A stretch of 64,000 bases of DNA. Source: an uncultured Clostridia bacterium (GTDB taxonomy: Bacteria > Bacillota > Dehalobacteriia > UBA4068). Shown one piece after another: positions 30,062 through 44,737 of this stretch. The notes beneath the pieces are model-generated. The model worked only from the letters and a program-made list of their open reading frames with translations, had not been told where the DNA came from and ran no database searches. The DNA lies in NCBI GenBank assembly GCA_944393575.1, contig CALYAP010000030.1, positions 180 through 64,179 on the forward strand, read 5' to 3'. The position numbers and the translations under genes are program-made. Each line of letters opens with the position of its first letter. Positions within the stretch are counted from its first letter, which is position 1.

Positions 30062-30415
30062 TAGCTGAGCAAGCCTATAAGCCGGGTTCTGTCGTGGATG
30101 AACATCTGTCTGGCCTCATTGTTGCCAATGAGTTCTAGCAACCTCTGCGAGAAACTAAACGGGCCGCTTTCCAGCTTCTCTGTACGGTCTTGCTCCGGAT
30201 GGGGTTTACCTAGCCAGCCGGTCTCCCGGCTGCTGGTGCGCTCTTACCGCACCGTTGCACCCTTACCGCCAAAAATGGCGGCGGTTTATTTCTGTGGCAC
30301 TATCCTTAAGGTCGCCCTCACCGGCCGTTAGCCGGCATCCTGCCCTATGGAGCCCGGACTTTCCTCAGACAAGGGCTTTCGCCCAGAGCCTGCGTTCATC
30401 CAGCTTACTCAGCAT
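30062..30415 (-). ncRNA. rnpB: RNase P RNA (bacterial type)
   Basis: The reverse complement contains GAGGAAAGUCCGGGCUCCAUAGGGCAG, GGUAAGGGUGCAACGGUGCGGUAAGAGCGCACC and ACAGAACCCGGCUUAU. The 5' end (GCUGAGUAAGC) and 3' end (GCUUGCUCAGC) pair to form P1. Confidence 0.9.
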
Positions 30416-32254: not shown

Positions 32255-32278
32255 GCAGTCCATAATTGAATATCACCA

Positions 32279-32546
32279 AAGGCAATGACGAAGACGGTCG
32301 AGCAGTTATGTTCGCAGAGAGTCGGCGGTTGGTGTAAGCCGATAACAACACTTCTCAAGTACCCATCACTTCCGAGCCGGGGATCCGAACGCTTATCTCA
32401 TAAGTTAGTAGACGTCCTCCGTGAAGCTGCGTTAAGGCGATGGGCTTGTTGGAGCCCTTTGAGGTGGCGCGAAAGCGCAATTTGAGTGGTACCGCGGGTA
32501 TGTTTATTCTCGTCTCAAAGATTTTTCTTTGAGACGATTTTTTATT
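32279..32546 (+). promoter_or_regulatory. T-box riboswitch leader, predicted specifier AUC (Ile)
   Basis: Stem I base has the K-turn context GGCAAUGACGAAG / CUUCCGAGCC. AG bulge AGAGAG and distal loop GGUUGGUGUAA are present. The T-box sequence AAUUUGAGUGGUACCGCGG is at 32479-32497. Terminator UCGUCUCAAAG...CUUUGAGACGA plus a U-run is at 32509-32546. AUC at 32365-32367 is followed by A and then the CUUC base stem. Confidence 0.85.
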
Positions 32547-32579
32547 ATTGGATATCAATAGTCTAAAGGAGGTTATCTC

Positions 32580-34841
32580 ATGTCCCCATGTAATGGAATG
32601 CTGCTGGAAGTTGCTTCACGCATCAGGGAAATGCGGGAAATCGCCGGATACACTCCGGAATTCATGGCAGAACAAACTGAAGTGTCTTTGGAAGATTATC
32701 TCAAATACGAAACTGGTTCTAGCGATCTTCCATTCACCTTTATTCATAAATGCGCACTGGTGTTTGATGTTGATATTACCGACTTGATGTCCGGACATAG
32801 TGCTAGGTTATCATCATATACTGTTACCCGCAAAGACGGCGGACAAATCACAGCCCGTGAGCCCGGCATCATCATCAAAAATCTGGCTCCACTCTTCCGC
32901 AATAAGATAGCTGAGCCTTTCTGGGTACGCTATTCCTATGATGAGAAACAACAACATAAACCAATCCATTTAACTACCCATGCTGGGCAGGAATTTGATC
33001 TGGTGCTAAGCGGCCAGCTCAAAGTTCAGGTGGGTGACAATATTGAAGTACTGCAGGAAGGCGACTGCATCTACTACAATAGCGCCACCCCTCACGGGAT
33101 GATCGCTATCGGCGGCAAGGACTGCATCTTCTGTGCAGTAGTCCTACCTGGCAAAGATAACGAAGAAGATAACCTAGGCGAAACTATCATGGCCACCAAA
33201 AAGATGGATCATCTCATCTATGAAAACTTCATCACTGTCGAAGAAGATGACATCGGAGCTTTGCAAAAGATCAGCTTCCATGATACAGATAAGTTCAATT
33301 TTGCTTTTGATATCGTTGATGAGATGGCTAAGAAACAACCGAACAAACTGGCCATGCTTCATCTGGACCGTGATAAAAATGAACGCCGCTTCACTTTCGA
33401 GGATATCAGCAGAGCCTCTTCCCGAGCCGCTAACTACTTCAAAGCTCTGGGCATCAAAAAGGGCGACCGCGTGATGCTGGTGCTCAGACGCAACTATCAA
33501 TTCTGGATAGCTATTTTAGGCTTACATAAGCTAGGTGCTATCGCTATCCCCGCCACTGACCAGCTGCAGAAAAAGGATTTTGAATACCGCTTTGAAGCTG
33601 CTGGAGTAAGCGCTATCGTCTGCACCTCTTTTGGCCACGTCTCCGAACAAGCAGAGTTAGCAATGGAAACCTGTCCTAATGTCAAAATCAAGATCATGGC
33701 TAATGGCGCCAAAGAAGGCTGGCATGATTTCGATAATGAATATATGATGTACCGCAGCACCTTTAAGCGCACCGAAGATAGCGCTGGCGGTGACGACCCG
33801 ATGCTGATGCTATTCACATCTGGTACTACTGGTTATCCTAAAATCGCTGCCCATAGCTACAAATATCCACTGGGACACTTCATCACCGCCAAGTATTGGC
33901 ATTGCGTCGACCCAGACGGGATCCATTTCACCATCTCTGATACTGGTTGGGGTAAAGCGCTCTGGGGTAAACTCTATGGCCAATGGCTCTGCGAAGCAGC
34001 TACTTTCACTTACGATTTTGACCGTTTTGACGCCCATGACCTGCTGCCGCTTTTTGCCAAATATCATATCACTACCTTCTGCGCGCCGCCGACCATGTAC
34101 CGCTTCATGATCAAAGAAGATATTTCCAAGTATGACCTCTCCTCTATCAAGCATGCAACCACTGCTGGTGAGGCGCTCAATCCTGAGGTTTTCCACCAGT
34201 TCAAAAAGGCTACCGGACTTTCGGTAATGGAAGGCTTTGGCCAAACAGAAACAACCTTAGTCTTAGGCAATTTCATTGGCGATACTCCCAAAATCGGCTC
34301 GATGGGCAAACCCAGCCCGCTCTATGAAGTGGAGCTGCTCAATAATGAAGGCCATCCGACTAAAGAAGGCGAGGTCGGTGAAATCTGCATCCGTACTGCC
34401 GAAAAAACACCAATCGGTCTCTATCTTGGCTACTACCGGGATGAAGAAGGCACTAAAGGCTCCTGGCACGATGGGTATTATCATACCGGTGATACGGCTT
34501 GGAAAGATGAGGACGGCTACTACTGGTATGTAGGCCGTGTTGACGACCTGATCAAATCCTCTGGTTACCGCATCGGCCCCTTTGAGATCGAGAGTGTTAT
34601 CATGGAGCTGCCCTATGTGCTGGAGTGTGCAGTTTCTCCGGCCCCAGACGCAATCCGCGGCCAAGTAGTCAAAGCCAGCATCGTTCTGACCAAGGGTACG
34701 GAACCCAGCGAAAACCTCAAAAAAGAGATCCAGACCTATGTCAAACAGCGCACCGCTCCTTATAAATACCCCAGAATCGTGGTCTTCCGTGATGATTTGC
34801 CCAAAACAATCAGCGGTAAAATCATCCGCCACCAGCTCTAA
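32580..34841 (+). CDS. Fusion protein: XRE-type HTH, cupin, then medium-chain-type acyl-CoA synthetase (AMP-forming)
   Basis: The N-terminal ~190 aa carry an HTH (IREMREIAGYTPEFMAEQTEVS) and a cupin (THAGQEFDLVLSGQLKVQVGD...EGDCIYYNSATPHG). The C-terminal part carries ANL motifs FTSGTTGYPK, YHTGD, GRVDDLIKSSGYRIGPFEIES and PKTISGKI. AAGGAGG RBS. Confidence 0.85.
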   Translation: MSPCNGMLLEVASRIREMREIAGYTPEFMAEQTEVSLEDYLKYETGSSDLPFTFIHKCALVFDVDITDLMSGHSARLSSYTVTRKDGGQITAREPGIIIKNLAPLFRNKIAEPFWVRYSYDEKQQHKPIHLTTHAGQEFDLVLSGQLKVQVGDNIEVLQEGDCIYYNSATPHGMIAIGGKDCIFCAVVLPGKDNEEDNLGETIMATKKMDHLIYENFITVEEDDIGALQKISFHDTDKFNFAFDIVDEMAKKQPNKLAMLHLDRDKNERRFTFEDISRASSRAANYFKALGIKKGDRVMLVLRRNYQFWIAILGLHKLGAIAIPATDQLQKKDFEYRFEAAGVSAIVCTSFGHVSEQAELAMETCPNVKIKIMANGAKEGWHDFDNEYMMYRSTFKRTEDSAGGDDPMLMLFTSGTTGYPKIAAHSYKYPLGHFITAKYWHCVDPDGIHFTISDTGWGKALWGKLYGQWLCEAATFTYDFDRFDAHDLLPLFAKYHITTFCAPPTMYRFMIKEDISKYDLSSIKHATTAGEALNPEVFHQFKKATGLSVMEGFGQTETTLVLGNFIGDTPKIGSMGKPSPLYEVELLNNEGHPTKEGEVGEICIRTAEKTPIGLYLGYYRDEEGTKGSWHDGYYHTGDTAWKDEDGYYWYVGRVDDLIKSSGYRIGPFEIESVIMELPYVLECAVSPAPDAIRGQVVKASIVLTKGTEPSENLKKEIQTYVKQRTAPYKYPRIVVFRDDLPKTISGKIIRHQL

Positions 34842-34954: not shown

Positions 34955-36241
34955 TTAGGCAACCGGGTTATTACAAATACCGACAAAGAGGATCATGCCG
35001 TTGCTGGCAGTGACCGCATAGATAAAGGGACGGTTCAAAATCATCTCCGCCCGTCCTTCAGGCATAGCAGCTCCGGCATAATCAATCTGGGTGAAAGCTG
35101 AGGCTTCGACGCCATTTTCATCGATAGCAATATGCGTCTCTTGATTAATACCACTAATAAAGGCCATCGCATCAGTGATTCCTGAGAAATCCGCATCCGT
35201 GTTAAAAGCAGCATTGATTCCTAGCGAGTGTAGCATATCAGCTAGGTTAGCACTAAAACCAAAGCTAAATTTGGGTATCTGCCAGATCACCTCGCCGCTG
35301 ACGCCTTCACCACCAGTGAGGACCTCCTGCAAAACATCTGGAGAAGATACCAATGATGCTACATCAACGCCCTCATCAGGTAGCACAAAAATCATACTGC
35401 CCGAGTTCTTTAAAGCCAGCTGAGAGCGGGTATAATTATTTCCCCGCACATAAGAGCTGGAGGCAAAAGTCTGGTTCATAAAATCGCATTCTACTGAACT
35501 ACTATCAGCTAGATAAAAGGTATCCGCAGCAGTTTCACTAGCATCAAAGCGGTCGATCCACTGATCATAAAAATAAACAGTATTAAGAATAGATAAGAGC
35601 TGCTCAGCATCAGTAGTGATCTGTGGAGTCAGCGTACCGTTAGTATCTTCAGTTATCCAAGCAGCCATGGCCTCACCAGCTGCCTGTTCAGCAAAATCCA
35701 CACTATAGGCACTGGCATAAAAATTACTTGTTGCCCCATCTAAAAAACTATCCTTGAAGGTGATTTCTTGGCCATTAACTTCATTATCTAACCATAGAGA
35801 AGTAGCGATCTTTAGCTGTGAAACTTCATTATCCGTATAGAGCAGCCGGTAAAGATTGCCGCACTGCTCCGCCAAGGTGTCGGCATCAGCTACCCCGAGT
35901 AAGTCTAGCAACTCCTGTTGAGTTTGCCCCTCGGCCCCACTGGCTGCCACTGCCAGGGCATAATAAAGACTGAGCGGCGAATAGTTGACATTTGTATCAG
36001 CATTATCATTTAATAAGGAAGAAGCAGTTTGATAGGCAAAATCATCAAAAGCATTAGCAAAACTATCGGTAATCTGGTTAGCTTCCCTAATAGCATATTT
36101 GGCTTCATAATCATCAAACCCTACCGCCTCTGGGTATTCCACCCCGCGCACCAGGCTATCCGCTGTAGCAGTCTGATTATCACAGGCAGCCAAAGCTAGC
36201 AAGGCAACAGCAGCGCATAAGGCCAGCAAAAATTTTTTCAT
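34955..36241 (-). CDS. Serpin family lipoprotein
   Basis: Signal peptide with lipobox LAAC. Serpin-length body. Hinge and reactive-centre loop ENGVEASAFTQIDYAGAAMPE are followed by NRPFIY. Confidence 0.8.
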   Translation of the reverse strand: MKKFLLALCAAVALLALAACDNQTATADSLVRGVEYPEAVGFDDYEAKYAIREANQITDSFANAFDDFAYQTASSLLNDNADTNVNYSPLSLYYALAVAASGAEGQTQQELLDLLGVADADTLAEQCGNLYRLLYTDNEVSQLKIATSLWLDNEVNGQEITFKDSFLDGATSNFYASAYSVDFAEQAAGEAMAAWITEDTNGTLTPQITTDAEQLLSILNTVYFYDQWIDRFDASETAADTFYLADSSSVECDFMNQTFASSSYVRGNNYTRSQLALKNSGSMIFVLPDEGVDVASLVSSPDVLQEVLTGGEGVSGEVIWQIPKFSFGFSANLADMLHSLGINAAFNTDADFSGITDAMAFISGINQETHIAIDENGVEASAFTQIDYAGAAMPEGRAEMILNRPFIYAVTASNGMILFVGICNNPVA

Positions 36242-36310: not shown

Positions 36311-36610
36311 TTAATCTCTGATACCCTCGGCAATACAATTGCCAAAAAGGTAAAAGCAAAAAGCCGTTACCCCAGGGAATGCATCTTCAGGGAGAAAATT
36401 CCCCTCCAGTTCAATAGTATAGCCTAGTCCGCGGTAGGTACCGGAGCCACCATCATCAGCAGTTAATGATGCTGTGGCGAAAAGCGGCCGTTCAAAATCA
36501 TGGCGCACCCGCCAATAATCAACTACTACGGTAGCTGCCCATAAAACAATAACTGCCATTACAGTGATGACTAAAGCTGTCAATGCTTTCTTTTTTCTAA
36601 TCGCTTTCAC
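36311..36610 (-). CDS. Small membrane-anchored hypothetical protein
   Basis: One TM helix (ALTALVITVMAVIVLWAATVVV) followed by ~65 aa. The start is uncertain: an AGGAGG RBS at about 36612-36620 abuts the GTG at 36610. Confidence 0.4.
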   Translation of the reverse strand: MKAIRKKKALTALVITVMAVIVLWAATVVVDYWRVRHDFERPLFATASLTADDGGSGTYRGLGYTIELEGNFLPEDAFPGVTAFCFYLFGNCIAEGIRD

Positions 36611-36759
36611 CTCCTGAATAGACCCATGAGCAAAAGCTATCTGCAGGCCAAACAATTAATATTACTCTGGGAAAGGACAAACAGTTACCAGTATCTGTTT
36701 ATAAAATAAGACGCAGGGAAAAACAATTATGTTCCCAGGTAAAATTTTTGAAAAAACAT

Positions 36760-36788
36760 TTGACAGCGTCCAAAAGCCATGCTATAAT
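36760..36788 (+). promoter_or_regulatory. SigmaA-type promoter of T-box unit B
   Basis: TTGACA (36760-36765), 17 nt spacer, TATAAT (36783-36788). Confidence 0.7.
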
Positions 36789-36810
36789 ACATACTAATTT
36801 CATAAGAATA

Positions 36811-37068
36811 AAGGCAATGACGAAGAGGGTCGGGATTTTAGTAGTTACAGAGAGTTGGCGGTTGGTGCGAGCCAATAATGAACGGATTCCAATGGCTTGT
36901 CACTTCCGAGCCGGGGTGCAGAAAGCAAATGCAAGTAGAGCCTCCCGTGAAGCTGCGTTAAGGCGATGGGCTTGTTAGAGTCCTTTGAGTGGTGCGAAAG
37001 CGCAATTTGAGTGGTACCGCGGGTATGTTTATTCTCGTCTCAAAGATTTTCTTTGAGACGATTTTTTA
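36811..37068 (+). promoter_or_regulatory. T-box riboswitch leader, predicted specifier GUC (Val)
   Basis: Same architecture as unit A: GGCAAUGACGAAG / CUUCCGAGCC base, AGAGAG bulge, GGUUGGUGCGA distal loop, AAUUUGAGUGGUACCGCGG T-box sequence, and terminator plus U-run at about 37033-37068. GUC at 36899-36901 is followed by A and then CUUC. Confidence 0.85.
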
Positions 37069-37095
37069 TTTTACTTAAAAGGAGAAACGAGAGCA

Positions 37096-39399
37096 ATGAA
37101 CCAGTCCAACGAATTATTCTCTAAGCTGCATGAAGTGGCTGCCCGAATTCGCGAATTGCGGGAGATAGCTGGCTATACGCCAGAATTCATGGCAGAGCAG
37201 ACTGGCGTATCAGTTGGTGAATACCAAGAATGCGAAAGTGGCGAACAAGACCTCAACTTCGCTTTTATCTATCGCTGCGCCCAGGCTTTGAGCGTTGATG
37301 TTACTGATATCATCGAAGGCGCTAGCCCTAAACTTACATCATACACCCTGACCAGAAAAGGCGAAGGCCAGCGCATCGAAAAAGCACATGGGATGATCTA
37401 TTATAATCTGGCGGCAATGTTCAAAAACAGGATCGCTGAGCCACTGCTGGTCACAGCAGTCTATGATGAGGAAGCCCAGCATAAAGAAATCGAGATTACT
37501 ACTCATGCCGGACAAGAATGCGATATTATTGTCAAAGGACAGCTCAAGGTGCAAGTTGGCGATCATACAGAAATCCTCCAGGAAGGAGACTGCATCTACT
37601 ACAATAGCTCTACTCCACATGGCATGATCGCCGTTGGCGGAAAAGATTGCCTGTTCTATGCTATCGTTCTTAATCCTACTGGCGAGCCGATCCCAGGTAT
37701 CTCTGCTGGTCCACAGGAAGGAGATTTTCTGCCGGAGATCAAAGGCAAAGGACATCCTTGCCAAGCGCATCGGATCTATGAAAACTTCATCACGGTCAAA
37801 GAAAGCGAGATTGGCGCTCTTGAAGAGATCAGCTTCCATGATGATGAGCATTTCAATTTTGCCTTTGATATTGTCGATGAACTGGCCAAGAAAAAACCGA
37901 ACAAACTGGCTATGCTTCATCTGGACCGTGATAAGAATGAACGCCGCTTCACCTTTGAAGATATGAGCAGGGCTTCTTCCCGTGCCGCCAACTACTTCAA
38001 AGCGCTGGGCATCAAAAAAGGCGACCGTGTGATGCTGGTGCTCAAGCGGAATTATCAGTTCTGGTTCGCTGTTCTGGGCTTGCATAAGCTAGGTGCTATC
38101 GCTATCCCCGCCACTGATCAGCTGCAGAAAAAGGATTTCGAATACCGCTTTGAAGCCGCTGGAGTAAGCGCTATCATCTGCACTGCCTATGGTAGCTCCT
38201 CCGAGCAGGCAGAACTAGCAATGGAAACCTGCCCTAATGTCAAAATCAAGATCATGACCAATGGAGCCAAAGAAGGCTGGCATGATTTCGATAATGAATA
38301 TATGATGTACCGCAGCACCTTTAAACGCACCGAAGATAGCGCTGGCGGCGACGACCTGATGCTGATGTTCTTTACCTCTGGCACTACCGGATACCCCAAG
38401 ATGGCTGCACATAGCTTTAAATATCCGCTGGGGCATTTTATCACCGCTAAATATTGGCATTGTGTCGACCCGGAGGGGCTTCACCTGACCATCTCCGATA
38501 CTGGTTGGGCCAAAGCAATGTGGGGCAAGCTCTATGGCCAATGGCTCTGCGAAGCAGCGATCTTTGTTTATGACTTTGACCGTTTCGACGCCCATGACCT
38601 GCTGCCGCTTTTCGCTAAGCATCATATCACTACCTTCTGCGCTCCGCCGACCATGTACCGCTTCATGATTAAGGAGGATATCGCCAAGTATGACCTCTCC
38701 TCCATCAAGCATGCTACCACTGCTGGCGAAGCGCTTAACCCAGAGGTTTTCCACCAGTTCAAAAAAGTTACTGGACTCTCAATCATGGAAGGCTTTGGTC
38801 AAAGTGAAACCACTGTGGTCTTAGGCAATCTCATTGGCGATACTCCCAAAATCGGCTCGATGGGCAAGCCCAGCCCGCTCTATGAAGTAGAGCTGCTCGA
38901 TAACGAAGGGAATCCAACCAAAGTCGGCGAAGTTGGTGAAATCTGCATTCGTACTGCCGAAGGTGCACCACGCGGACTATTCAGAGGCTATTACCGTGAT
39001 GAAGAAAAAACTAATGACGCCTGGCATGATGGTTATTATCATACTGGCGATACGGCCTGGAAAGATGAAGATGGCTACTACTGGTATGTAGGCCGTGTTG
39101 ATGACCTAATTAAATCTTCCGGATACCGCATTGGCCCCTTTGAGATCGAGAGTGTGATGATGGAACTGCCCTACATTTTGGAGTGTGCAGTTTCTCCGGC
39201 CCCAGACGAAATCCGCGGCCAAGTGGTCAAAGCCAGCATCGTTCTTACTAAAGGGACGGAGCCCAGCGAAAACCTTAAAAAAGAGATCCAGACCTATGTC
39301 AAACAGCGCACCGCTCCTTATAAATACCCCAGGATCGTGGTCTTCCGTGACGAATTACCAAAAACACCCAGCGGCAAAATCATGCGTAACAAGCTATAA
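37096..39399 (+). CDS. Fusion protein: XRE-type HTH, cupin, then medium-chain-type acyl-CoA synthetase (paralog B)
   Basis: Same motifs as paralog A. It has a ~14 aa longer linker (PTGEPIPGISAGPQEGDFLPEIKGKGHPCQAHR). Confidence 0.85.
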   Translation: MNQSNELFSKLHEVAARIRELREIAGYTPEFMAEQTGVSVGEYQECESGEQDLNFAFIYRCAQALSVDVTDIIEGASPKLTSYTLTRKGEGQRIEKAHGMIYYNLAAMFKNRIAEPLLVTAVYDEEAQHKEIEITTHAGQECDIIVKGQLKVQVGDHTEILQEGDCIYYNSSTPHGMIAVGGKDCLFYAIVLNPTGEPIPGISAGPQEGDFLPEIKGKGHPCQAHRIYENFITVKESEIGALEEISFHDDEHFNFAFDIVDELAKKKPNKLAMLHLDRDKNERRFTFEDMSRASSRAANYFKALGIKKGDRVMLVLKRNYQFWFAVLGLHKLGAIAIPATDQLQKKDFEYRFEAAGVSAIICTAYGSSSEQAELAMETCPNVKIKIMTNGAKEGWHDFDNEYMMYRSTFKRTEDSAGGDDLMLMFFTSGTTGYPKMAAHSFKYPLGHFITAKYWHCVDPEGLHLTISDTGWAKAMWGKLYGQWLCEAAIFVYDFDRFDAHDLLPLFAKHHITTFCAPPTMYRFMIKEDIAKYDLSSIKHATTAGEALNPEVFHQFKKVTGLSIMEGFGQSETTVVLGNLIGDTPKIGSMGKPSPLYEVELLDNEGNPTKVGEVGEICIRTAEGAPRGLFRGYYRDEEKTNDAWHDGYYHTGDTAWKDEDGYYWYVGRVDDLIKSSGYRIGPFEIESVMMELPYILECAVSPAPDEIRGQVVKASIVLTKGTEPSENLKKEIQTYVKQRTAPYKYPRIVVFRDELPKTPSGKIMRNKL

Positions 39400-39541: not shown

Positions 39542-40090
39542 CTATTTCATTACCATACCAGCAGCCTCAGCGCCTTTACGCAAAGCCTCACGGTTAACCG
39601 GAATCAGATGTTTCTTTCTTTCGCCTAATTTATGCTGCAAGGCATCAATGATGCTTTCTTCGCTAACGCATTTGGTAGCAGCGACATAAGCGCCCAGCAT
39701 AGCAATATTGGCAACTTTAGGCTGTCCAAGTTCAACGGCAATCTCAGTACAAGGGATATAGAATGCATCTAAATCATCCCGGGTAGTTTTTCTGGAAATA
39801 ATCGAGCTATTAATAAATAGTTTGCCCTGAGGAATGATAGCCTGTTCAAACTTATCTAAAGAAGGAGCATTCATCGCAATCAAAGAGGTAGGATGCTCAA
39901 TAATCGGGGATGCTACCGGCTTATCAGAAATAGTGACTGAGCAGTTAGCCGTACCGCCGCGCATCTCCGGGCCATAAGAAGGCAACCACGCAACATTATG
40001 TCCTTCGAACAAGGCAGCCTGAGCCAGCAGTTGTCCCATCAATAAAACGCCTTGCCCGCCAAAACCAGCAAAAATATCTCTCTCCAGCAT
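39542..40090 (-). CDS. 2-oxoacid:ferredoxin oxidoreductase, gamma subunit
   Basis: 182 aa. FAGFGGQGVLLMGQLLA start is typical of the POR/KOR/VOR gamma subunit. Confidence 0.85.
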   Translation of the reverse strand: MLERDIFAGFGGQGVLLMGQLLAQAALFEGHNVAWLPSYGPEMRGGTANCSVTISDKPVASPIIEHPTSLIAMNAPSLDKFEQAIIPQGKLFINSSIISRKTTRDDLDAFYIPCTEIAVELGQPKVANIAMLGAYVAATKCVSEESIIDALQHKLGERKKHLIPVNREALRKGAEAAGMVMK

Positions 40091-40092
40091 CG

Positions 40093-40827
40093 CTATACCT
40101 CCTTAAAAACGCCCAAAGGATAATAGGGGATCATCTCATCCTCCAGCCATTGCATCGCTTCGATAGGTGATTTGCCCCAGTTGGTCGGGCAGGTAGAGAG
40201 CACCTCTACCATAGAAAAGCCCTTGCGTTCCATCTGCGTCTCAAAAGCTTTGCGAATAGCTTTCTTGGTCTTGATAATATTAGCATTATTATTGACAGCG
40301 GTACGTTCGATATAAGCGGAGCCTTCAATAGTAGCGAGCAGCTCAGCCATGCGAATCGGCTCACCGCAAAGATCCTTATCCCTACCCTTAGGGCTAGTAG
40401 TGGTACGTTGACCAACCAAAGTGGTCGGCGCCATCTGACCGCCGGTCATACCATAAATGGCATTATTGATAAAGATAGTGGTGATCTTCTCTCCCCTATG
40501 AGCTGCGTGAACGATCTCTGCAGTACCGATAGAGGCCAGGTCGCCATCACCTTGATAAGTAAAAACACAGTTATTGGGGAAAACCCGTTTAGCACCAGTG
40601 GCGACTGCCGGAGCACGTCCATGTGCTGCTTCATACATATCACAATTAAAATAATTATAAGCAAATACTGCGCAACCGACCGGTGCAACGCCAACGGTAT
40701 GGTCGAGAAGATCCATTTCCTCAAGGACTTCTGCTACCAGACGGTGCACTATCCCATGGCCGCAGCCAGGGCAATAATGATTAGGAACATCAATCAGTCC
40801 CTTAGTTCTAGCGAAAACCTTGGTCAT
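40093..40827 (-). CDS. 2-oxoacid:ferredoxin oxidoreductase, beta (TPP-binding) subunit
   Basis: CPGCGHG..., GDGDLASIG and NNAIYGMTGGQ motifs. Confidence 0.9.
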   Translation of the reverse strand: MTKVFARTKGLIDVPNHYCPGCGHGIVHRLVAEVLEEMDLLDHTVGVAPVGCAVFAYNYFNCDMYEAAHGRAPAVATGAKRVFPNNCVFTYQGDGDLASIGTAEIVHAAHRGEKITTIFINNAIYGMTGGQMAPTTLVGQRTTTSPKGRDKDLCGEPIRMAELLATIEGSAYIERTAVNNNANIIKTKKAIRKAFETQMERKGFSMVEVLSTCPTNWGKSPIEAMQWLEDEMIPYYPLGVFKEV

Positions 40828-40829
40828 TG

Positions 40830-41906
40830 TTATTCCTCCCTCAGCGCTTTAACTTTGGCAATGATTTCCTCAACAGTGGCGATCTTGCTTCCGGGATAAC
40901 CCAGGAAAGCAACCTCCTTTAGACCATTGACTGCTAGACGGGCGTCTTCGACCATCTGACCAGCACTGATCTCTACAGCCAAGGCTTTCTTGACTGAAGG
41001 CTGAGCCACTGCATCCAATACCGCCTGAGAAGGGAACGGCCATAAGGTGATCGGACGAACCATGCCAACCTTAATCCCCTCCTCTGCTAATTCATCAATA
41101 GCAGAACGGCAAACGCGGGAGATGGTGCCATAGGCGATCAGGATAACTTCTGCATCCTCAATATTATAATACTCATATCTAACTTCATTTTGCTCAATAA
41201 TACGATAACGTGCCTGCAAGCGCTCATGCAGAGCTTCCAGAGCTTCATCTTCGATATAAAGGGAATTGATAATTGCTCTTGGCCGTCCGCATCCTTCATG
41301 CCAGCCAGTAGCAGCCCAAGGCTTCTCAACTTTTATTTCCTCGTCGCTCTTAAATTCAGGCATAGTGACTGGCTCCATCATCTGACCGATCAAGCCATCG
41401 GCCAAGATCATCACTGGAGTGCGGTATTTATCAGCGATATCAAAAGCACCATAAACGATATCGATAGCCTCTTGGACAGAATCCGGACCAAAAACGATCA
41501 GCTTATAATCGCCATGACCGCCGCCTTTGACTGATTGGAAATAGTCACCCTGGGAAGCCTGAATACCACCAATGCCCGGGCCACCGCGCATTACATTCAC
41601 GATCACGCAAGGCAGCTCCGCACCAGCAATGGTAGAGATACCTTCCTGTTTTAAGCTGATTCCCGGGCTAGAGCTGGAAGTCATAACTCTAGCGCCGGCA
41701 CCTGCGGCGCCGTATACCATATTAGAAGCTGCGATCTCCGACTCCGCCTGGAGAAAAACACCACCGATCTCCGGCAAACGGGCGGACATATATTCAGGAA
41801 TATCATTCTGCGGGGTGATTGGGTAGCCGAAGAAATAGCGGCAACCTCCGCGCAGTGCTGCCTCAGCAATAGCTTCGCAGCCTTTCATCAATTGTTTAGT
41901 CGTCAT
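40830..41906 (-). CDS. 2-oxoacid:ferredoxin oxidoreductase, alpha subunit
   Basis: 358 aa. GCEAIAEAALRGGCRYFFGYPITPQ start. Confidence 0.9.
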   Translation of the reverse strand: MTTKQLMKGCEAIAEAALRGGCRYFFGYPITPQNDIPEYMSARLPEIGGVFLQAESEIAASNMVYGAAGAGARVMTSSSSPGISLKQEGISTIAGAELPCVIVNVMRGGPGIGGIQASQGDYFQSVKGGGHGDYKLIVFGPDSVQEAIDIVYGAFDIADKYRTPVMILADGLIGQMMEPVTMPEFKSDEEIKVEKPWAATGWHEGCGRPRAIINSLYIEDEALEALHERLQARYRIIEQNEVRYEYYNIEDAEVILIAYGTISRVCRSAIDELAEEGIKVGMVRPITLWPFPSQAVLDAVAQPSVKKALAVEISAGQMVEDARLAVNGLKEVAFLGYPGSKIATVEEIIAKVKALREE

Positions 41907-41919
41907 CTATGTAGCCCTC

Positions 41920-42126
41920 CTATTTATCGATCTCTATTGCCACATCAGGACAAGTACGGGCACAGGCAGCACAGGCGATGCAAGCATCCTGGTCTACGAT
42001 ACGTACTGGCTGATAACCTTTGGAATTAAGTTTCGTCTCTTCCAAAGTTAGCAGGTTTTTGGGACAAGCACGAACGCACAGTCCACAACCTTTACAGATC
42101 TCGGTATATATTGTTAATTTAGCCAT
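41920..42126 (-). CDS. 2-oxoacid:ferredoxin oxidoreductase, delta subunit (2x[4Fe-4S] ferredoxin)
   Basis: 68 aa with two CxxCxxCxxxCP motifs. Confidence 0.85.
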   Translation of the reverse strand: MAKLTIYTEICKGCGLCVRACPKNLLTLEETKLNSKGYQPVRIVDQDACIACAACARTCPDVAIEIDK

Positions 42127-42145
42127 TTACTCTAACCTCCATCTT

Positions 42146-42853
42146 TTAAACTCCGTATTTAACGAATCTATCCCAGTCGCGGTGCATCTTAGTATGGATG
42201 AACACCGGTTCACCAATATAATCCTGTTTTAAATCCCGCTCCTGTGCCAGCTGCAAAAAACCGCTTAGCGGCTGCTCTTCTCCACTGGTCATAACTACCG
42301 GTACTCCAGTTTGGGCAGCAACTTCCTTAACTATATAATAGGAATGGAGGAGATCCTCCGCCGTGCTTTCATAGCTCATGTTCCCATTATTAATTAAGCC
42401 GTTGATTCTGAGTCTCGCACTCTCCTCAATGGCTCTCATCATAGCTATTATCTTGTCCGGGGTTGCCGACATTGGTCGGTGCGGGTTAATAACAAGCCAT
42501 ATACGCAATCGAGGTGGTGGAACTTTATCAAAGTAGCCTTTATACTGGCCTAGCGCACGCGCTCCTAGACCATCGCCGCCGACGTCAAAAATAACGCTGC
42601 CAGATCCGGCAGTAAAGGCGGAATAAATCTCGGGGTTGATGGTAATTATCTCAACATTGCTCATCGCATAGTTAGGGATAATTAGTCGTACGCCAGCCTT
42701 GTCTAGAGCTAGCTTTCTTTCCGAGGCCCGAAAATAGGGGTTGATCACATCTAGGTCGATGAGAGTAGTCGGATTACCAGCTGCTGCAGCATCCATAGCA
42801 AAATGCATTGCCAGTTCAGTCTTGCCACTGCCAAAGTTGCCAAGGAAAATCAT
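42146..42853 (-). CDS. P-loop NTPase (MinD/CooC-like SIMIBI fold) of unknown function, first gene of the OFOR operon
   Basis: MIFLGNFGSGKTE Walker A at the N-terminus and an IDLD..NP motif. The ATG at 42853 follows AGGAAA. The ORF track extends to the GTG at 42892. A candidate promoter GTGACA, 17 nt, TATAAT lies on the minus strand upstream (about 42905-42945). Confidence 0.55.
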   Translation of the reverse strand: MIFLGNFGSGKTELAMHFAMDAAAAGNPTTLIDLDVINPYFRASERKLALDKAGVRLIIPNYAMSNVEIITINPEIYSAFTAGSGSVIFDVGGDGLGARALGQYKGYFDKVPPPRLRIWLVINPHRPMSATPDKIIAMMRAIEESARLRINGLINNGNMSYESTAEDLLHSYYIVKEVAAQTGVPVVMTSGEEQPLSGFLQLAQERDLKQDYIGEPVFIHTKMHRDWDRFVKYGV

Positions 42854-42999
42854 ATATTCTTTTTCCTGGGCTTTATCCGACACAAATCTCACTTTCCTCT
42901 CAAATTTGAATAGAATATATTATAGCACAGTTATTGAGAATTGTCACTATTTTATTTAGGAAATTTATTACTTTTTTGCAACAAAAAAGCATGATTATT

Positions 43000-43037
43000 C
43001 AGAATAAAACAAAAACATCTCCAGCATAATGGAGATG
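43000..43037 (-). terminator. Terminator-like hairpin about 420 bp downstream of tgt
   Basis: Minus strand CATCTCCA ttatgc TGGAGATG followed by TTTTTGTTTT. Confidence 0.5.
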
Positions 43038-43203
43038 CAGATATCTAAACTGAGCCAAAGGCTAACTACGGCAAAAACATACCATATCTAGAGCTAACCA
43101 ATCATATCAGCAGGATTATTGTGCTAAAAAACAATGGTGACTATGGCTAAACTATATAGTAAAATAACAATATAAAAACAAATGCTGATTAGGAGACAAA
43201 GGT

Positions 43204-43455
43204 ATGTTAGAATTCAAATTTGATACGCAACTGTTGATCGAAGGAGAACATCTAGATGAAGATGCTATCAGCGCCTATTTCCGCAAAAACTTTCAGGGAG
43301 ATTGTCTTCTAGCCGTTGGTGACGAAGAGCTGATCAAAATCCATTTTCACACCAATGAACCATGGCAGGTGCTGGAATATTGCGCTTCTTTAGGCGAGAT
43401 TTACGATATCGTGATCGAAAATATGGAACGTCAATCGCAGGGTCTTCCCGGATAG
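43204..43455 (+). CDS. Stand-alone 83-aa ORF resembling the C-terminal domain of FakA/YloV (DAK2-fusion fatty acid kinase); possible gene remnant
   Basis: GDCLLAVGDEELIKIHFHTNEPWQVLEYCASLGEIYDIVIENMERQ resembles the conserved ...vKvHvHT..P..vl......G.l..i.i.NM..Q end of YloV-type proteins. AGGAGA RBS. Confidence 0.45.
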   Translation: MLEFKFDTQLLIEGEHLDEDAISAYFRKNFQGDCLLAVGDEELIKIHFHTNEPWQVLEYCASLGEIYDIVIENMERQSQGLPG

Positions 43456-43459
43456 GGGC

Positions 43460-44737
<1,278 letters not shown>

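Follow-up and report, generated by a model that had tools for sequence, protein, structure and literature searches.

T-box leaders of the Bacillus subtilis tyrS and glyQS types (Rfam RF00230) have a K-turn-like stem I base, a codon with a single nucleotide and then a closing helix after it, an AGAGA bulge and a distal loop, stems II, IIA/B and III, and a conserved T-box with a UGGN bulge in competing antiterminator and terminator structures. Duplication of T-boxes with a change of amino-acid specificity is known in Firmicutes (Vitreschak et al. 2008, cited from the summary in PMC3766115), and Wels et al. 2008 (PMC2494555) let the specifier guide functional annotation, as we do here. We analysed a 64,000-nucleotide (nt) stretch of DNA (hereafter the window) from an uncultured Clostridia bacterium (GTDB lineage Bacteria; Bacillota; Dehalobacteriia; UBA4068; assembly GCA_944393575.1, contig CALYAP010000030.1, positions 180 to 64,179). 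It holds a leader with all of these features (leader 2), whose specifier reads GUC (Val), and a paralogous leader 1 that reads AUC (Ile). Unlike the described members of the family, leader 2 is predicted to regulate an acyl-CoA synthetase fusion and not a tRNA synthetase, a classical biosynthetic gene or a transporter.

Two described enzymes are close to the controlled protein. MacsMa of Methanosarcina acetivorans prefers 2-methylbutyrate as substrate (PMC10455477), and MbcS of Staphylococcus aureus activates 2-methylbutyrate and isobutyrate, and hardly isovalerate (PMC10026030). Branched volatile acids are used by anaerobes for isoleucine and leucine synthesis (PMC10658910; PMC7356843). Rumen and gut anaerobes and methanogens turn branched and aromatic acids into amino acids by reductive carboxylation with 2-oxoacid:ferredoxin oxidoreductases (VOR/IOR), and it is this pathway that the genes described below, a ligase, VorDABC, IlvE and PaaK with a Phe leader, resemble. 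We consider it likely that positions 36760-37072 are a tRNA-Val T-box attenuator that, when on, yields an isobutyrate ligase feeding VOR and IlvE towards valine, and that the sister unit serves 2-methylbutyrate to isoleucine in the same manner. Our confidence is higher for the RNA and its valine assignment, and lower for the substrate and the direction of flux.

Anatomy of the valine-codon leader and its gene

The two leaders and the genes behind them comprise the following features.

36760-36788 (+): promoter of leader 2, sigma-70-type, TTGACA, 17-nt spacer, TG-TATAAT, 12/12 consensus matches
36808-37071 (+): complete T-box leader 2, with promoter, stem I, UGGU T-box bulge and antiterminator/terminator pair
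36814-36911 (+): stem I (Rfam alignment; stem I model match of 132 bits)
G36814-C36911, C36815-G36910 (+): base pairs of the stem I base, K-turn-like AAUGAC/CGA
GAAG 36822-36825 / CUUC 36903-36906 (+): stem I helix closing 3' of the codon
GGGAUU 36832-36837 / GAUUCC 36885-36890 (+): stem I helix
36849-36853 (+): AGAGA bulge
36854-36859 / 36871-36876 (+): distal helix, with the distal loop at 36860-36870
36899-36901 (+): specifier GUC (Val), then A36902 (Rfam and our own stem I model alignments)
36912-37004 (+): stem II, IIA/B and stem III region (Rfam alignment)
37005-37044 (+): T-box sequence and antiterminator, UGGU bulge at 37012-37015 (Rfam alignment)
37035-37061 (+): 12-bp stem of the intrinsic terminator, then a T-run, to 37072
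37096-39399 (+): controlled gene, 767-aa fusion of an XRE-type helix-turn-helix (HTH), a cupin and an acyl-CoA synthetase, Val clade (Pfam; PDB 3ETC; NCBIfam)
32276-32548 (+): sister leader 1 (Ile), specifier AUC 32365-32367, A32368; same T-box and terminator
32580-34841 (+): sister gene, 753-aa fusion of the same architecture, Ile clade (Pfam)

Leader 2 matches RF00230 over the whole model (1-219) at 36808-37045 (+) with 89.3 bits (E 1.4e-19), and leader 1 at 32276-32520 with 80.2 bits (E 2.9e-17); these E-values, with full-length matches (1-219) of both leaders, are far beyond chance. Because both scores lie below the family's gathering threshold of 93, a scan of the whole window with Rfam at default cut-offs returned RNase P RNA and no T-box, and the two leaders were found in E-value mode only. 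Stem I of leader 2 has the UGA...GA base as well as the AGAGA bulge and the distal loop GGUUGGUGCGA expected of a tRNA elbow platform. The codon is followed by A36902 and then by CUUC, which pairs with GAAG on the 5' strand. The T-box sequence AAUUUGAGUGGUACCGCGGG lies at 37005-37023 inside the antiterminator, whose 3' arm overlaps the 5' arm of the terminator, so that the two structures compete. Minimum-free-energy folding of stem I alone gave a z of about +1, and the comparative structure was used instead. A search for operator-like inverted repeats common to both promoters returned only AT-rich palindromes, none of them shared.

The 767-aa product has the Pfam domains AMP-binding (E 6e-65) and AMP-binding_C (E 1.5e-20), and its best solved relative is MacsMa (PDB 3ETC), matched by residues 249-764 (516 aligned) with E 1.6e-193. 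Its catalytic motifs are intact (TSGTTG427, GQSET568, YHTGD648, GRVDD666 and SGK759, that is, A3, A5, A7, A8 and the A10 lysine), as in an adenylate-forming acyl-CoA synthetase of the MACS/ACSM branch. MacsMa shares these motifs but is archaeal and without the HTH-cupin module. Among NCBIfam models the best for both paralogues is MbcS (NF047394), with 443.8 and 440 bits against an equivalog cut-off of 850; MbcS is therefore the nearest named family, which does not amount to membership. The products of the two genes are 80% identical, and both genes are monocistronic. A complete XRE-HTH and cupin module is fused to both ligases (37096-37830 and 32580-33300, the N-terminal ~245 aa), and the best PDB match of the N-terminal 245 residues is the HTH-cupin regulator 1Y9Q.

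Specifier codons in related leaders follow the ligase clades

When one genome of each GTDB species was scanned, at least 588 relatives were detected, and the best 80 loci (L001-L080) were analysed. They come from metagenome-assembled genomes of Clostridia living in gut, rumen and digesters (Oscillospiraceae, Acutalibacteraceae, Christensenellaceae and others). A T-box motif lies about 90 nt upstream of almost every homologue, two tandem units are present in many loci, and the motif AGUGGUACCGCG occurs in nearly all ligase leaders. A loose regular expression for the T-box gave false matches within coding regions and was dropped after a covariance-model search, in which a stem I model built from both window leaders matched 151 stem I elements.

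A reading of the window made from its letters alone (the sequence-only reading) had proposed a Val-codon leader paralogous to an Ile leader and called for a survey of orthologous loci. The comparative data strongly support that proposal, since only Val or Ile codons were found on ligases. All 63 leaders of Val-clade ligases carry a GUN codon (GUA in about 40, GUC in 22, GUG in 1), all 50 leaders of Ile-clade ligases carry AUC, and no Leu leader stands before any of the 113 ligases. The base before GUN is U, A, G or C across the 63 leaders (CAGUC, CGGUA, CCGUA, AUGUC); because it varies freely, no alternative frame conserves one amino acid. The same column reads CUC in nearly all LeuA-like genes (CUG in two weakly aligned Leu-type leaders, only one of them linked to a LeuA-like ORF) and UUC in five loci before the N-terminus of a PaaK-like phenylacetate-CoA ligase, which shows that it reports the cognate amino acid. 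In the window, Rfam and the stem I model both place GUC at 36899-36901, the coordinates first proposed, and AUC of leader 1 lies in the same register at 32365-32367; the codon of leader 2 fits the class of the regulated gene and precedes a purine (GUC and A). In 33 of the 50 Ile-type leaders the codon is followed by a C, a relaxation of the usual purine rule that sets these relatives of leader 2 apart from RF00230.

The structure around the codon covaries strongly. For the stem I helices that bracket it, 92.7% of cells are paired over 141 distinct leaders, 17 of 18 pairs show double changes, and none of 500 shuffles reaches the observed value; the helix that fixes the register is paired in 99.5-100%, with compensatory changes. 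The UGGU bulge, which the sequence-only reading had taken to be kept, is present in all leaders surveyed. Bacterial tRNA-Val, -Ile, -Leu and -Phe carry A73, which fits this bulge.

Two further leader types accompany the ligases. Many loci carry, divergent from or downstream of the ligase pair, a short LeuA-like gene (HMGL-like and LeuA_dimer, ~465 aa) that has a CUC (Leu) T-box and scores below the leuA equivalog cut-offs. A canonical T-box with an S-turn and a UUC (Phe) specifier lies before the PaaK N-terminus, directly after ilvE, in Christensenellaceae-like loci; the PaaK genes in these five loci are cut off by the locus ends.

L008 1135-2858 (-) and L032 8388-10054 (+): examples of the LeuA-like gene
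L066 13716-14292, L067 13805-14283, L069 13803-14280, L070 13701-14292 and L071 9887-10342: loci with the Phe leader and PaaK

The Leu leader on the LeuA-like gene fits leucine made from 2-oxoisovalerate and not via a ligase, and the substrate range of MbcS fits Ile and Val leaders on the ligases and none for Leu. By analogy, a Phe leader and PaaK after ilvE suggest the same logic for phenylacetate to phenylalanine.

A short helix in place of the S-turn beside the codon

Leader 2 and the other ligase leaders lack the canonical S-turn (loop E, with AGUA in the 5' and GAA in the 3' strand), whereas the Phe leaders in the same loci do have it. In the specifier region of leader 2 (36826-36902), AGGGUC on the 5' side and AAUGGCUU on the 3' side come together in a short helix (helix S), in which A-GGGUC pairs with GGCUU immediately 5' of the codon. 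A covarying helix of 4-5 bp at the codon thus replaces the AGUA/GAA element of RF00230.

36827-36831 / 36894-36898 (+): helix S beside the codon, with G36827.U36898, G36828.U36897, G36829-C36896, U36830.G36895 and C36831-G36894

Anchored pair counts for helix S are 28/29, 29/29, 28/29 and 23/29 in the Ile class; in the Val class, where five pairs were counted, the best four reach 36-42 of 46. The pairs occur in different leaders as U-A, C-G, A-U or G-U. In a gap-free alignment of 75 distinct constructs, double changes occur in all five pairs, with a covariation of 0.435; shuffles give 0.237 (0/500), and slid registers no more than 0.19. Since helix S pairs the 4-5 nt 5' of the codon, the codon and one nucleotide form a small bulge on the 3' side, with a helix to either side of it. 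The sequence-only reading, which took a 12-nt 3' strand of the specifier loop to be open, has to be revised: the nucleotides directly 5' of the codon are paired with the 5' strand. Helix S, together with insertions, probably explains the sub-threshold Rfam scores. The Rfam T-box threshold misses this leader subfamily, and its more than 100 natural stem I variants without an S-turn form a set for structural work.

History of the two units

The sequence-only reading was right that both leaders have the same stem I base, AGAGA bulge, distal loop GGCGGUUGGUG, T-box AAUUUGAGUGGUACCGCGGG and terminator, and that their downstream halves are almost identical. Identity between leaders 1 and 2 is 71% in stem I, 55% in stem II, which is class-specific, 81% in IIA/B-III and 97% from T-box to terminator. 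The claim that only the specifier sets them apart does not hold: of the 12 nt quoted for it, 6 differ, as does about 29% of stem I.

A neighbour-joining tree of 113 full-length ligases splits AUC-led from GUN-led proteins in 112 of 113 cases, in agreement with the suggested sub-functionalisation by amino-acid signal. Ten alignment columns are fixed differently in the Ile and Val classes; the downstream paralogue (767 aa) has the Val-type residue at 10/10, and the upstream one has the Ile-type residue at 9/10, with a conservative F for Y at the tenth. Nine of the ten columns lie in the HTH-cupin module. The remaining one, in SDTGW[G/A]K, is Gly in the Ile class and in MacsMa and Ala in the Val class, and by sequence register it stands four residues before the Trp equivalent to MacsMa Trp259, which is reported to be critical for acyl-substrate binding (PMC10455477). 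By this register the position may line the pocket, and that the smaller residue (Gly) goes with the larger acid is suggestive. Across genomes, the catalytic domain barely separates the classes (68% versus 66%), so the division of labour between the paralogues may be mainly regulatory.

At the DNA level, the window units form a mosaic, with 93% identity in the leader 3' half and 80-98% in the AMP-binding domain, and about 70% in stem I and 55-67% in the HTH-cupin module.

32434-32548 versus 36960-37072: high-identity tract between the units (80-98%; flanks 55-70%)
33296-34795 versus 37854-39353: high-identity tract between the units (80-98%; flanks 55-70%)

Each stem I is nearer an orthologue in another genome (86% and 85%) than its neighbour (71%), and the N-domains of the two paralogues follow their clades. 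The T-box-terminator segment, by contrast, is 97% identical within the genome and at most 84% to any orthologue; for the catalytic domains, identity between the two paralogues is 89-92%, and orthologues reach no more than 76% (N-terminal part). Ile/Val pairs in other genomes are 60-70% identical, against 80% for the window pair. Tracts of 80-98% flanked by 55-70% are a mosaic typical of intragenomic conversion, and the simplest reading of it is two old lineages with local gene conversion. Conversion appears to have spared exactly the modules that carry class identity, stem I and the HTH-cupin module (stem II is class-specific too), which makes the pair a clean example of specificity modules resisting gene conversion.

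A recent duplication followed by single-base retuning was also considered and was rejected by the tree, the leader-region identities and the domain identities. The idea that a single purine change had retuned a duplicate therefore does not hold for these old lineages, whose stem I elements are each nearer their orthologues (85-86%) than each other. The within-genome difference, which had been offered as internal support for the codon, is weak evidence, because the near-identity of the leader 3' halves and the catalytic domains reflects local homogenisation; the cross-genome survey carries the weight. Like the T-box duplications of Firmicutes (PMC3766115), the window has paralogous leaders with different specifiers and a kept UGGU. 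Unlike them, the present switch appears ancient and tracks two orthologous protein clades across Clostridia families, and the window pair is overlaid by homogenisation except in stem I/II and the N-terminal domain.

Genome neighbourhood

A convergent cluster lies downstream of the 767-aa gene.

39542-42892 (-): convergent cluster (Pfam, NCBIfam)
42146-42892 (-): P-loop (CbiA/ParA-like) ATPase
41920-42126 (-): ferredoxin-like (4Fe-4S) delta subunit
40830-41906 (-): VorB-type alpha subunit (NF005507, 524.2 bits versus a cut-off of 399)
40093-40827 (-): beta subunit (TPP)
39542-40090 (-): gamma subunit (POR)

With an alpha subunit above the VorB cut-off and adjoining beta, gamma and delta subunits, the cluster is assigned by sequence as a 2-oxoisovalerate-type 2-oxoacid:ferredoxin oxidoreductase (VOR). 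No T-box was found upstream of it, at 42000-43600. The cluster is inverted, convergent with the ligase and free of a T-box in L001 and L055 as well.

In other genomes, the arrangement is mostly co-oriented. Of 62 Val-type ligase genes, 35 have the P-loop ATPase and the first VOR gene, if not more of the VOR genes, downstream in the same orientation, and 30 have all four VOR subunits there. The complete order ligase, P-loop ATPase, vorD, vorA, vorB, vorC, ilvE is present in 22 of the 62; 8 more run through the gamma subunit, 5 end at a locus boundary, and in 6 more ilvE comes directly next. VorB and IlvE pass the NCBIfam cut-offs. Ligase, VOR and ilvE behind one Val T-box would provide every step from isobutyrate to valine. 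The Ile-type ligase usually lies just upstream, with its own AUC leader.

Other genes were seen in these regions. The P-loop ATPase is CbiA/ParA/Mrp-like with weak family matches only; it heads the VOR cluster in 52 of the 80 loci and may serve the oxidoreductase in maturation or as an Fe-S carrier. Between the paralogous window units lie a bacterial serpin gene (Pfam Serpin, E 1e-69) and a 114-aa ORF without a family match; the 80 related loci contain no counterpart of either. The class A RNase P RNA is the sole Rfam family in the window above its gathering score.

L008 8304-8975 (+): P-loop ATPase, example in a relative
34955-36241 (-): bacterial serpin gene
36311-36655 (-): 114-aa ORF
30062-30411 (-): class A bacterial RNase P RNA, 297.8 bits
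27588-29084 (-): flanking gene, threonine synthase (thrC)
43460-44734 (-): flanking gene, tRNA-guanine transglycosylase (tgt)

Discussion

The data above show the anatomy of the RNA, the codon assignment (by comparative variation), the correlation of specifier and clade, and the conserved operon context, and the following mechanism is proposed. Transcription would start at the strong promoter of leader 2, and stem I would present GUC to the anticodon of tRNA-Val. When the tRNA is uncharged, its NCCA end (A73) would pair with the UGGU bulge and stabilise the antiterminator, and the polymerase would then read through the terminator at 37035-37072 into the 767-aa gene; with charged tRNA-Val, the antiterminator would not be stabilised and transcription would stop. 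The product would act as a ligase for alpha-branched short-chain acids, converting isobutyrate to isobutyryl-CoA. The neighbouring VOR would turn isobutyryl-CoA into 2-oxoisovalerate by reductive carboxylation, and a branched-chain aminotransferase would turn the latter into valine. The sister unit, the AUC leader with the 753-aa paralogue, would lead from 2-methylbutyrate to isoleucine by the same route. Binding of the tRNA, the substrates of the enzymes, the direction of flux and the role of the HTH-cupin module are what we infer in this scheme.

Several observations weigh against it. Leader 2 stays below the RF00230 threshold, and the absence of the S-turn implies that the codon is presented differently from solved stem I structures. 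There is no tRNA gene in the 64 kb window, so a match to tRNA-Val(GAC) lies beyond the window data. The window VOR cluster is convergent with the ligase, not co-transcribed and without a T-box. As for ilvE, the annotated region of the window covers ~27.6-44.7 kb, and no search was made beyond it. A distinct substrate preference of the two paralogues would hang on one consistent residue (Gly/Ala).

Three other explanations were weighed against this evidence. The leader could be a T-box read in another register, or both leaders could answer the same tRNA. The sequence CUUGUCA does offer CUU and UUG (Leu) and UGU (Cys), next to a specifier region that is non-canonical and lacks the S-turn. Only GUC/GUA/GUG, however, keeps one amino acid over the 63 orthologous leaders, the helix that fixes the register is almost invariably paired with compensatory changes, and at this column nearly all LeuA-like leaders have CUC (the two weakly aligned ones have CUG) and PaaK has UUC. 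We give this explanation hardly any credence. It is very improbable, if slightly less so, that the protein is mainly a DNA-binding regulator whose AMP-binding domain serves as a ligand sensor, so that the T-box would control a transcription factor. Such a role would suit the complete N-terminal XRE-HTH and cupin module with its match to 1Y9Q and its 9/10 class-diagnostic residues. All adenylate-forming motifs, including the A10 lysine, are nevertheless intact, and 516 residues align with a characterised enzyme at E 1.6e-193; the roles of regulator and enzyme are in any case not exclusive.

A valine T-box could also control a ligase that supplies branched acyl-CoA primers for membrane fatty acids, or one for catabolism or detoxification of the acid. 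MbcS serves branched-chain fatty-acid synthesis and is up when branched-chain amino acids are perceived to be low (PMC10026030, PMC13584741), and in the window the ligase is monocistronic and the VOR outside T-box control. We regard this as unlikely, although less so than the two preceding explanations. Most genomes have the Val-type ligase, VOR and ilvE in one orientation behind a single Val T-box, an operon that makes sense as a path from acid to acyl-CoA, 2-oxoacid and amino acid. Induction by uncharged tRNA follows a logic of supply and not of consumption, and the Phe T-box on PaaK beside ilvE repeats the pattern for an aromatic acid. MbcS itself mirrors the Ile and Val leaders and the lack of Leu leaders in its substrates, but it serves lipid synthesis, is without the N-terminal module, and has no T-box control in the literature examined.

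Beyond the valine attenuator itself, we tentatively propose, as a possibility rather than an expectation, that the salvage pathway is under a switch with two inputs. One would be the T-box, responding to uncharged tRNA-Val or tRNA-Ile, and the other a class-specific XRE-HTH/cupin sensor, the paralogues differing mainly in regulation. The latter is suggested by the module holding 9/10 class residues and having escaped homogenisation. Its ligand would be an amino acid, a 2-oxoacid or a branched acid, and it could act by DNA binding (at its own promoter or at VOR) or by allosteric control of the ligase. The stem I without an S-turn would in this arrangement be a structurally distinct way of presenting the codon to the tRNA.

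In function, the RNA of leader 2 is a member of an established family, and duplicated T-boxes that switch specificity were already known. What appears to be new is the enzyme class and pathway under control, the HTH-cupin module fused to the enzyme, and the specifier region without an S-turn. In the literature, no study was found that assigns the ligase/VOR/IlvE/PaaK gene set, or control by tRNA sensing, to the reductive-carboxylation pathway. Nor did targeted searches, whose coverage stopped short of the most relevant T-box reviews, connect a T-box with a CoA ligase, VOR, PaaK or reductive carboxylation, so that an earlier mention may exist; the genome-wide T-box and RNA-regulon surveys that were examined (one of them PMC3766115) list no CoA ligase, ferredoxin oxidoreductase or phenylacetate genes.

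With these leaders, the T-box regulon takes in a new enzyme class. Branched-chain 'isoacids' are required or used by many anaerobes of the rumen and gut, and the genes that activate these acids and their control are poorly assigned. Here the RNA labels the genes, with Ile and Val codons on sister ligases, Leu on leuA and Phe on a phenylacetate-CoA ligase. This provides a testable gene-to-substrate map for amino-acid synthesis by reductive carboxylation in abundant uncultured Oscillospirales and Christensenellales. With the two sister enzymes, gut Clostridia can probably make valine and isoleucine anew out of branched short-chain fatty acids.

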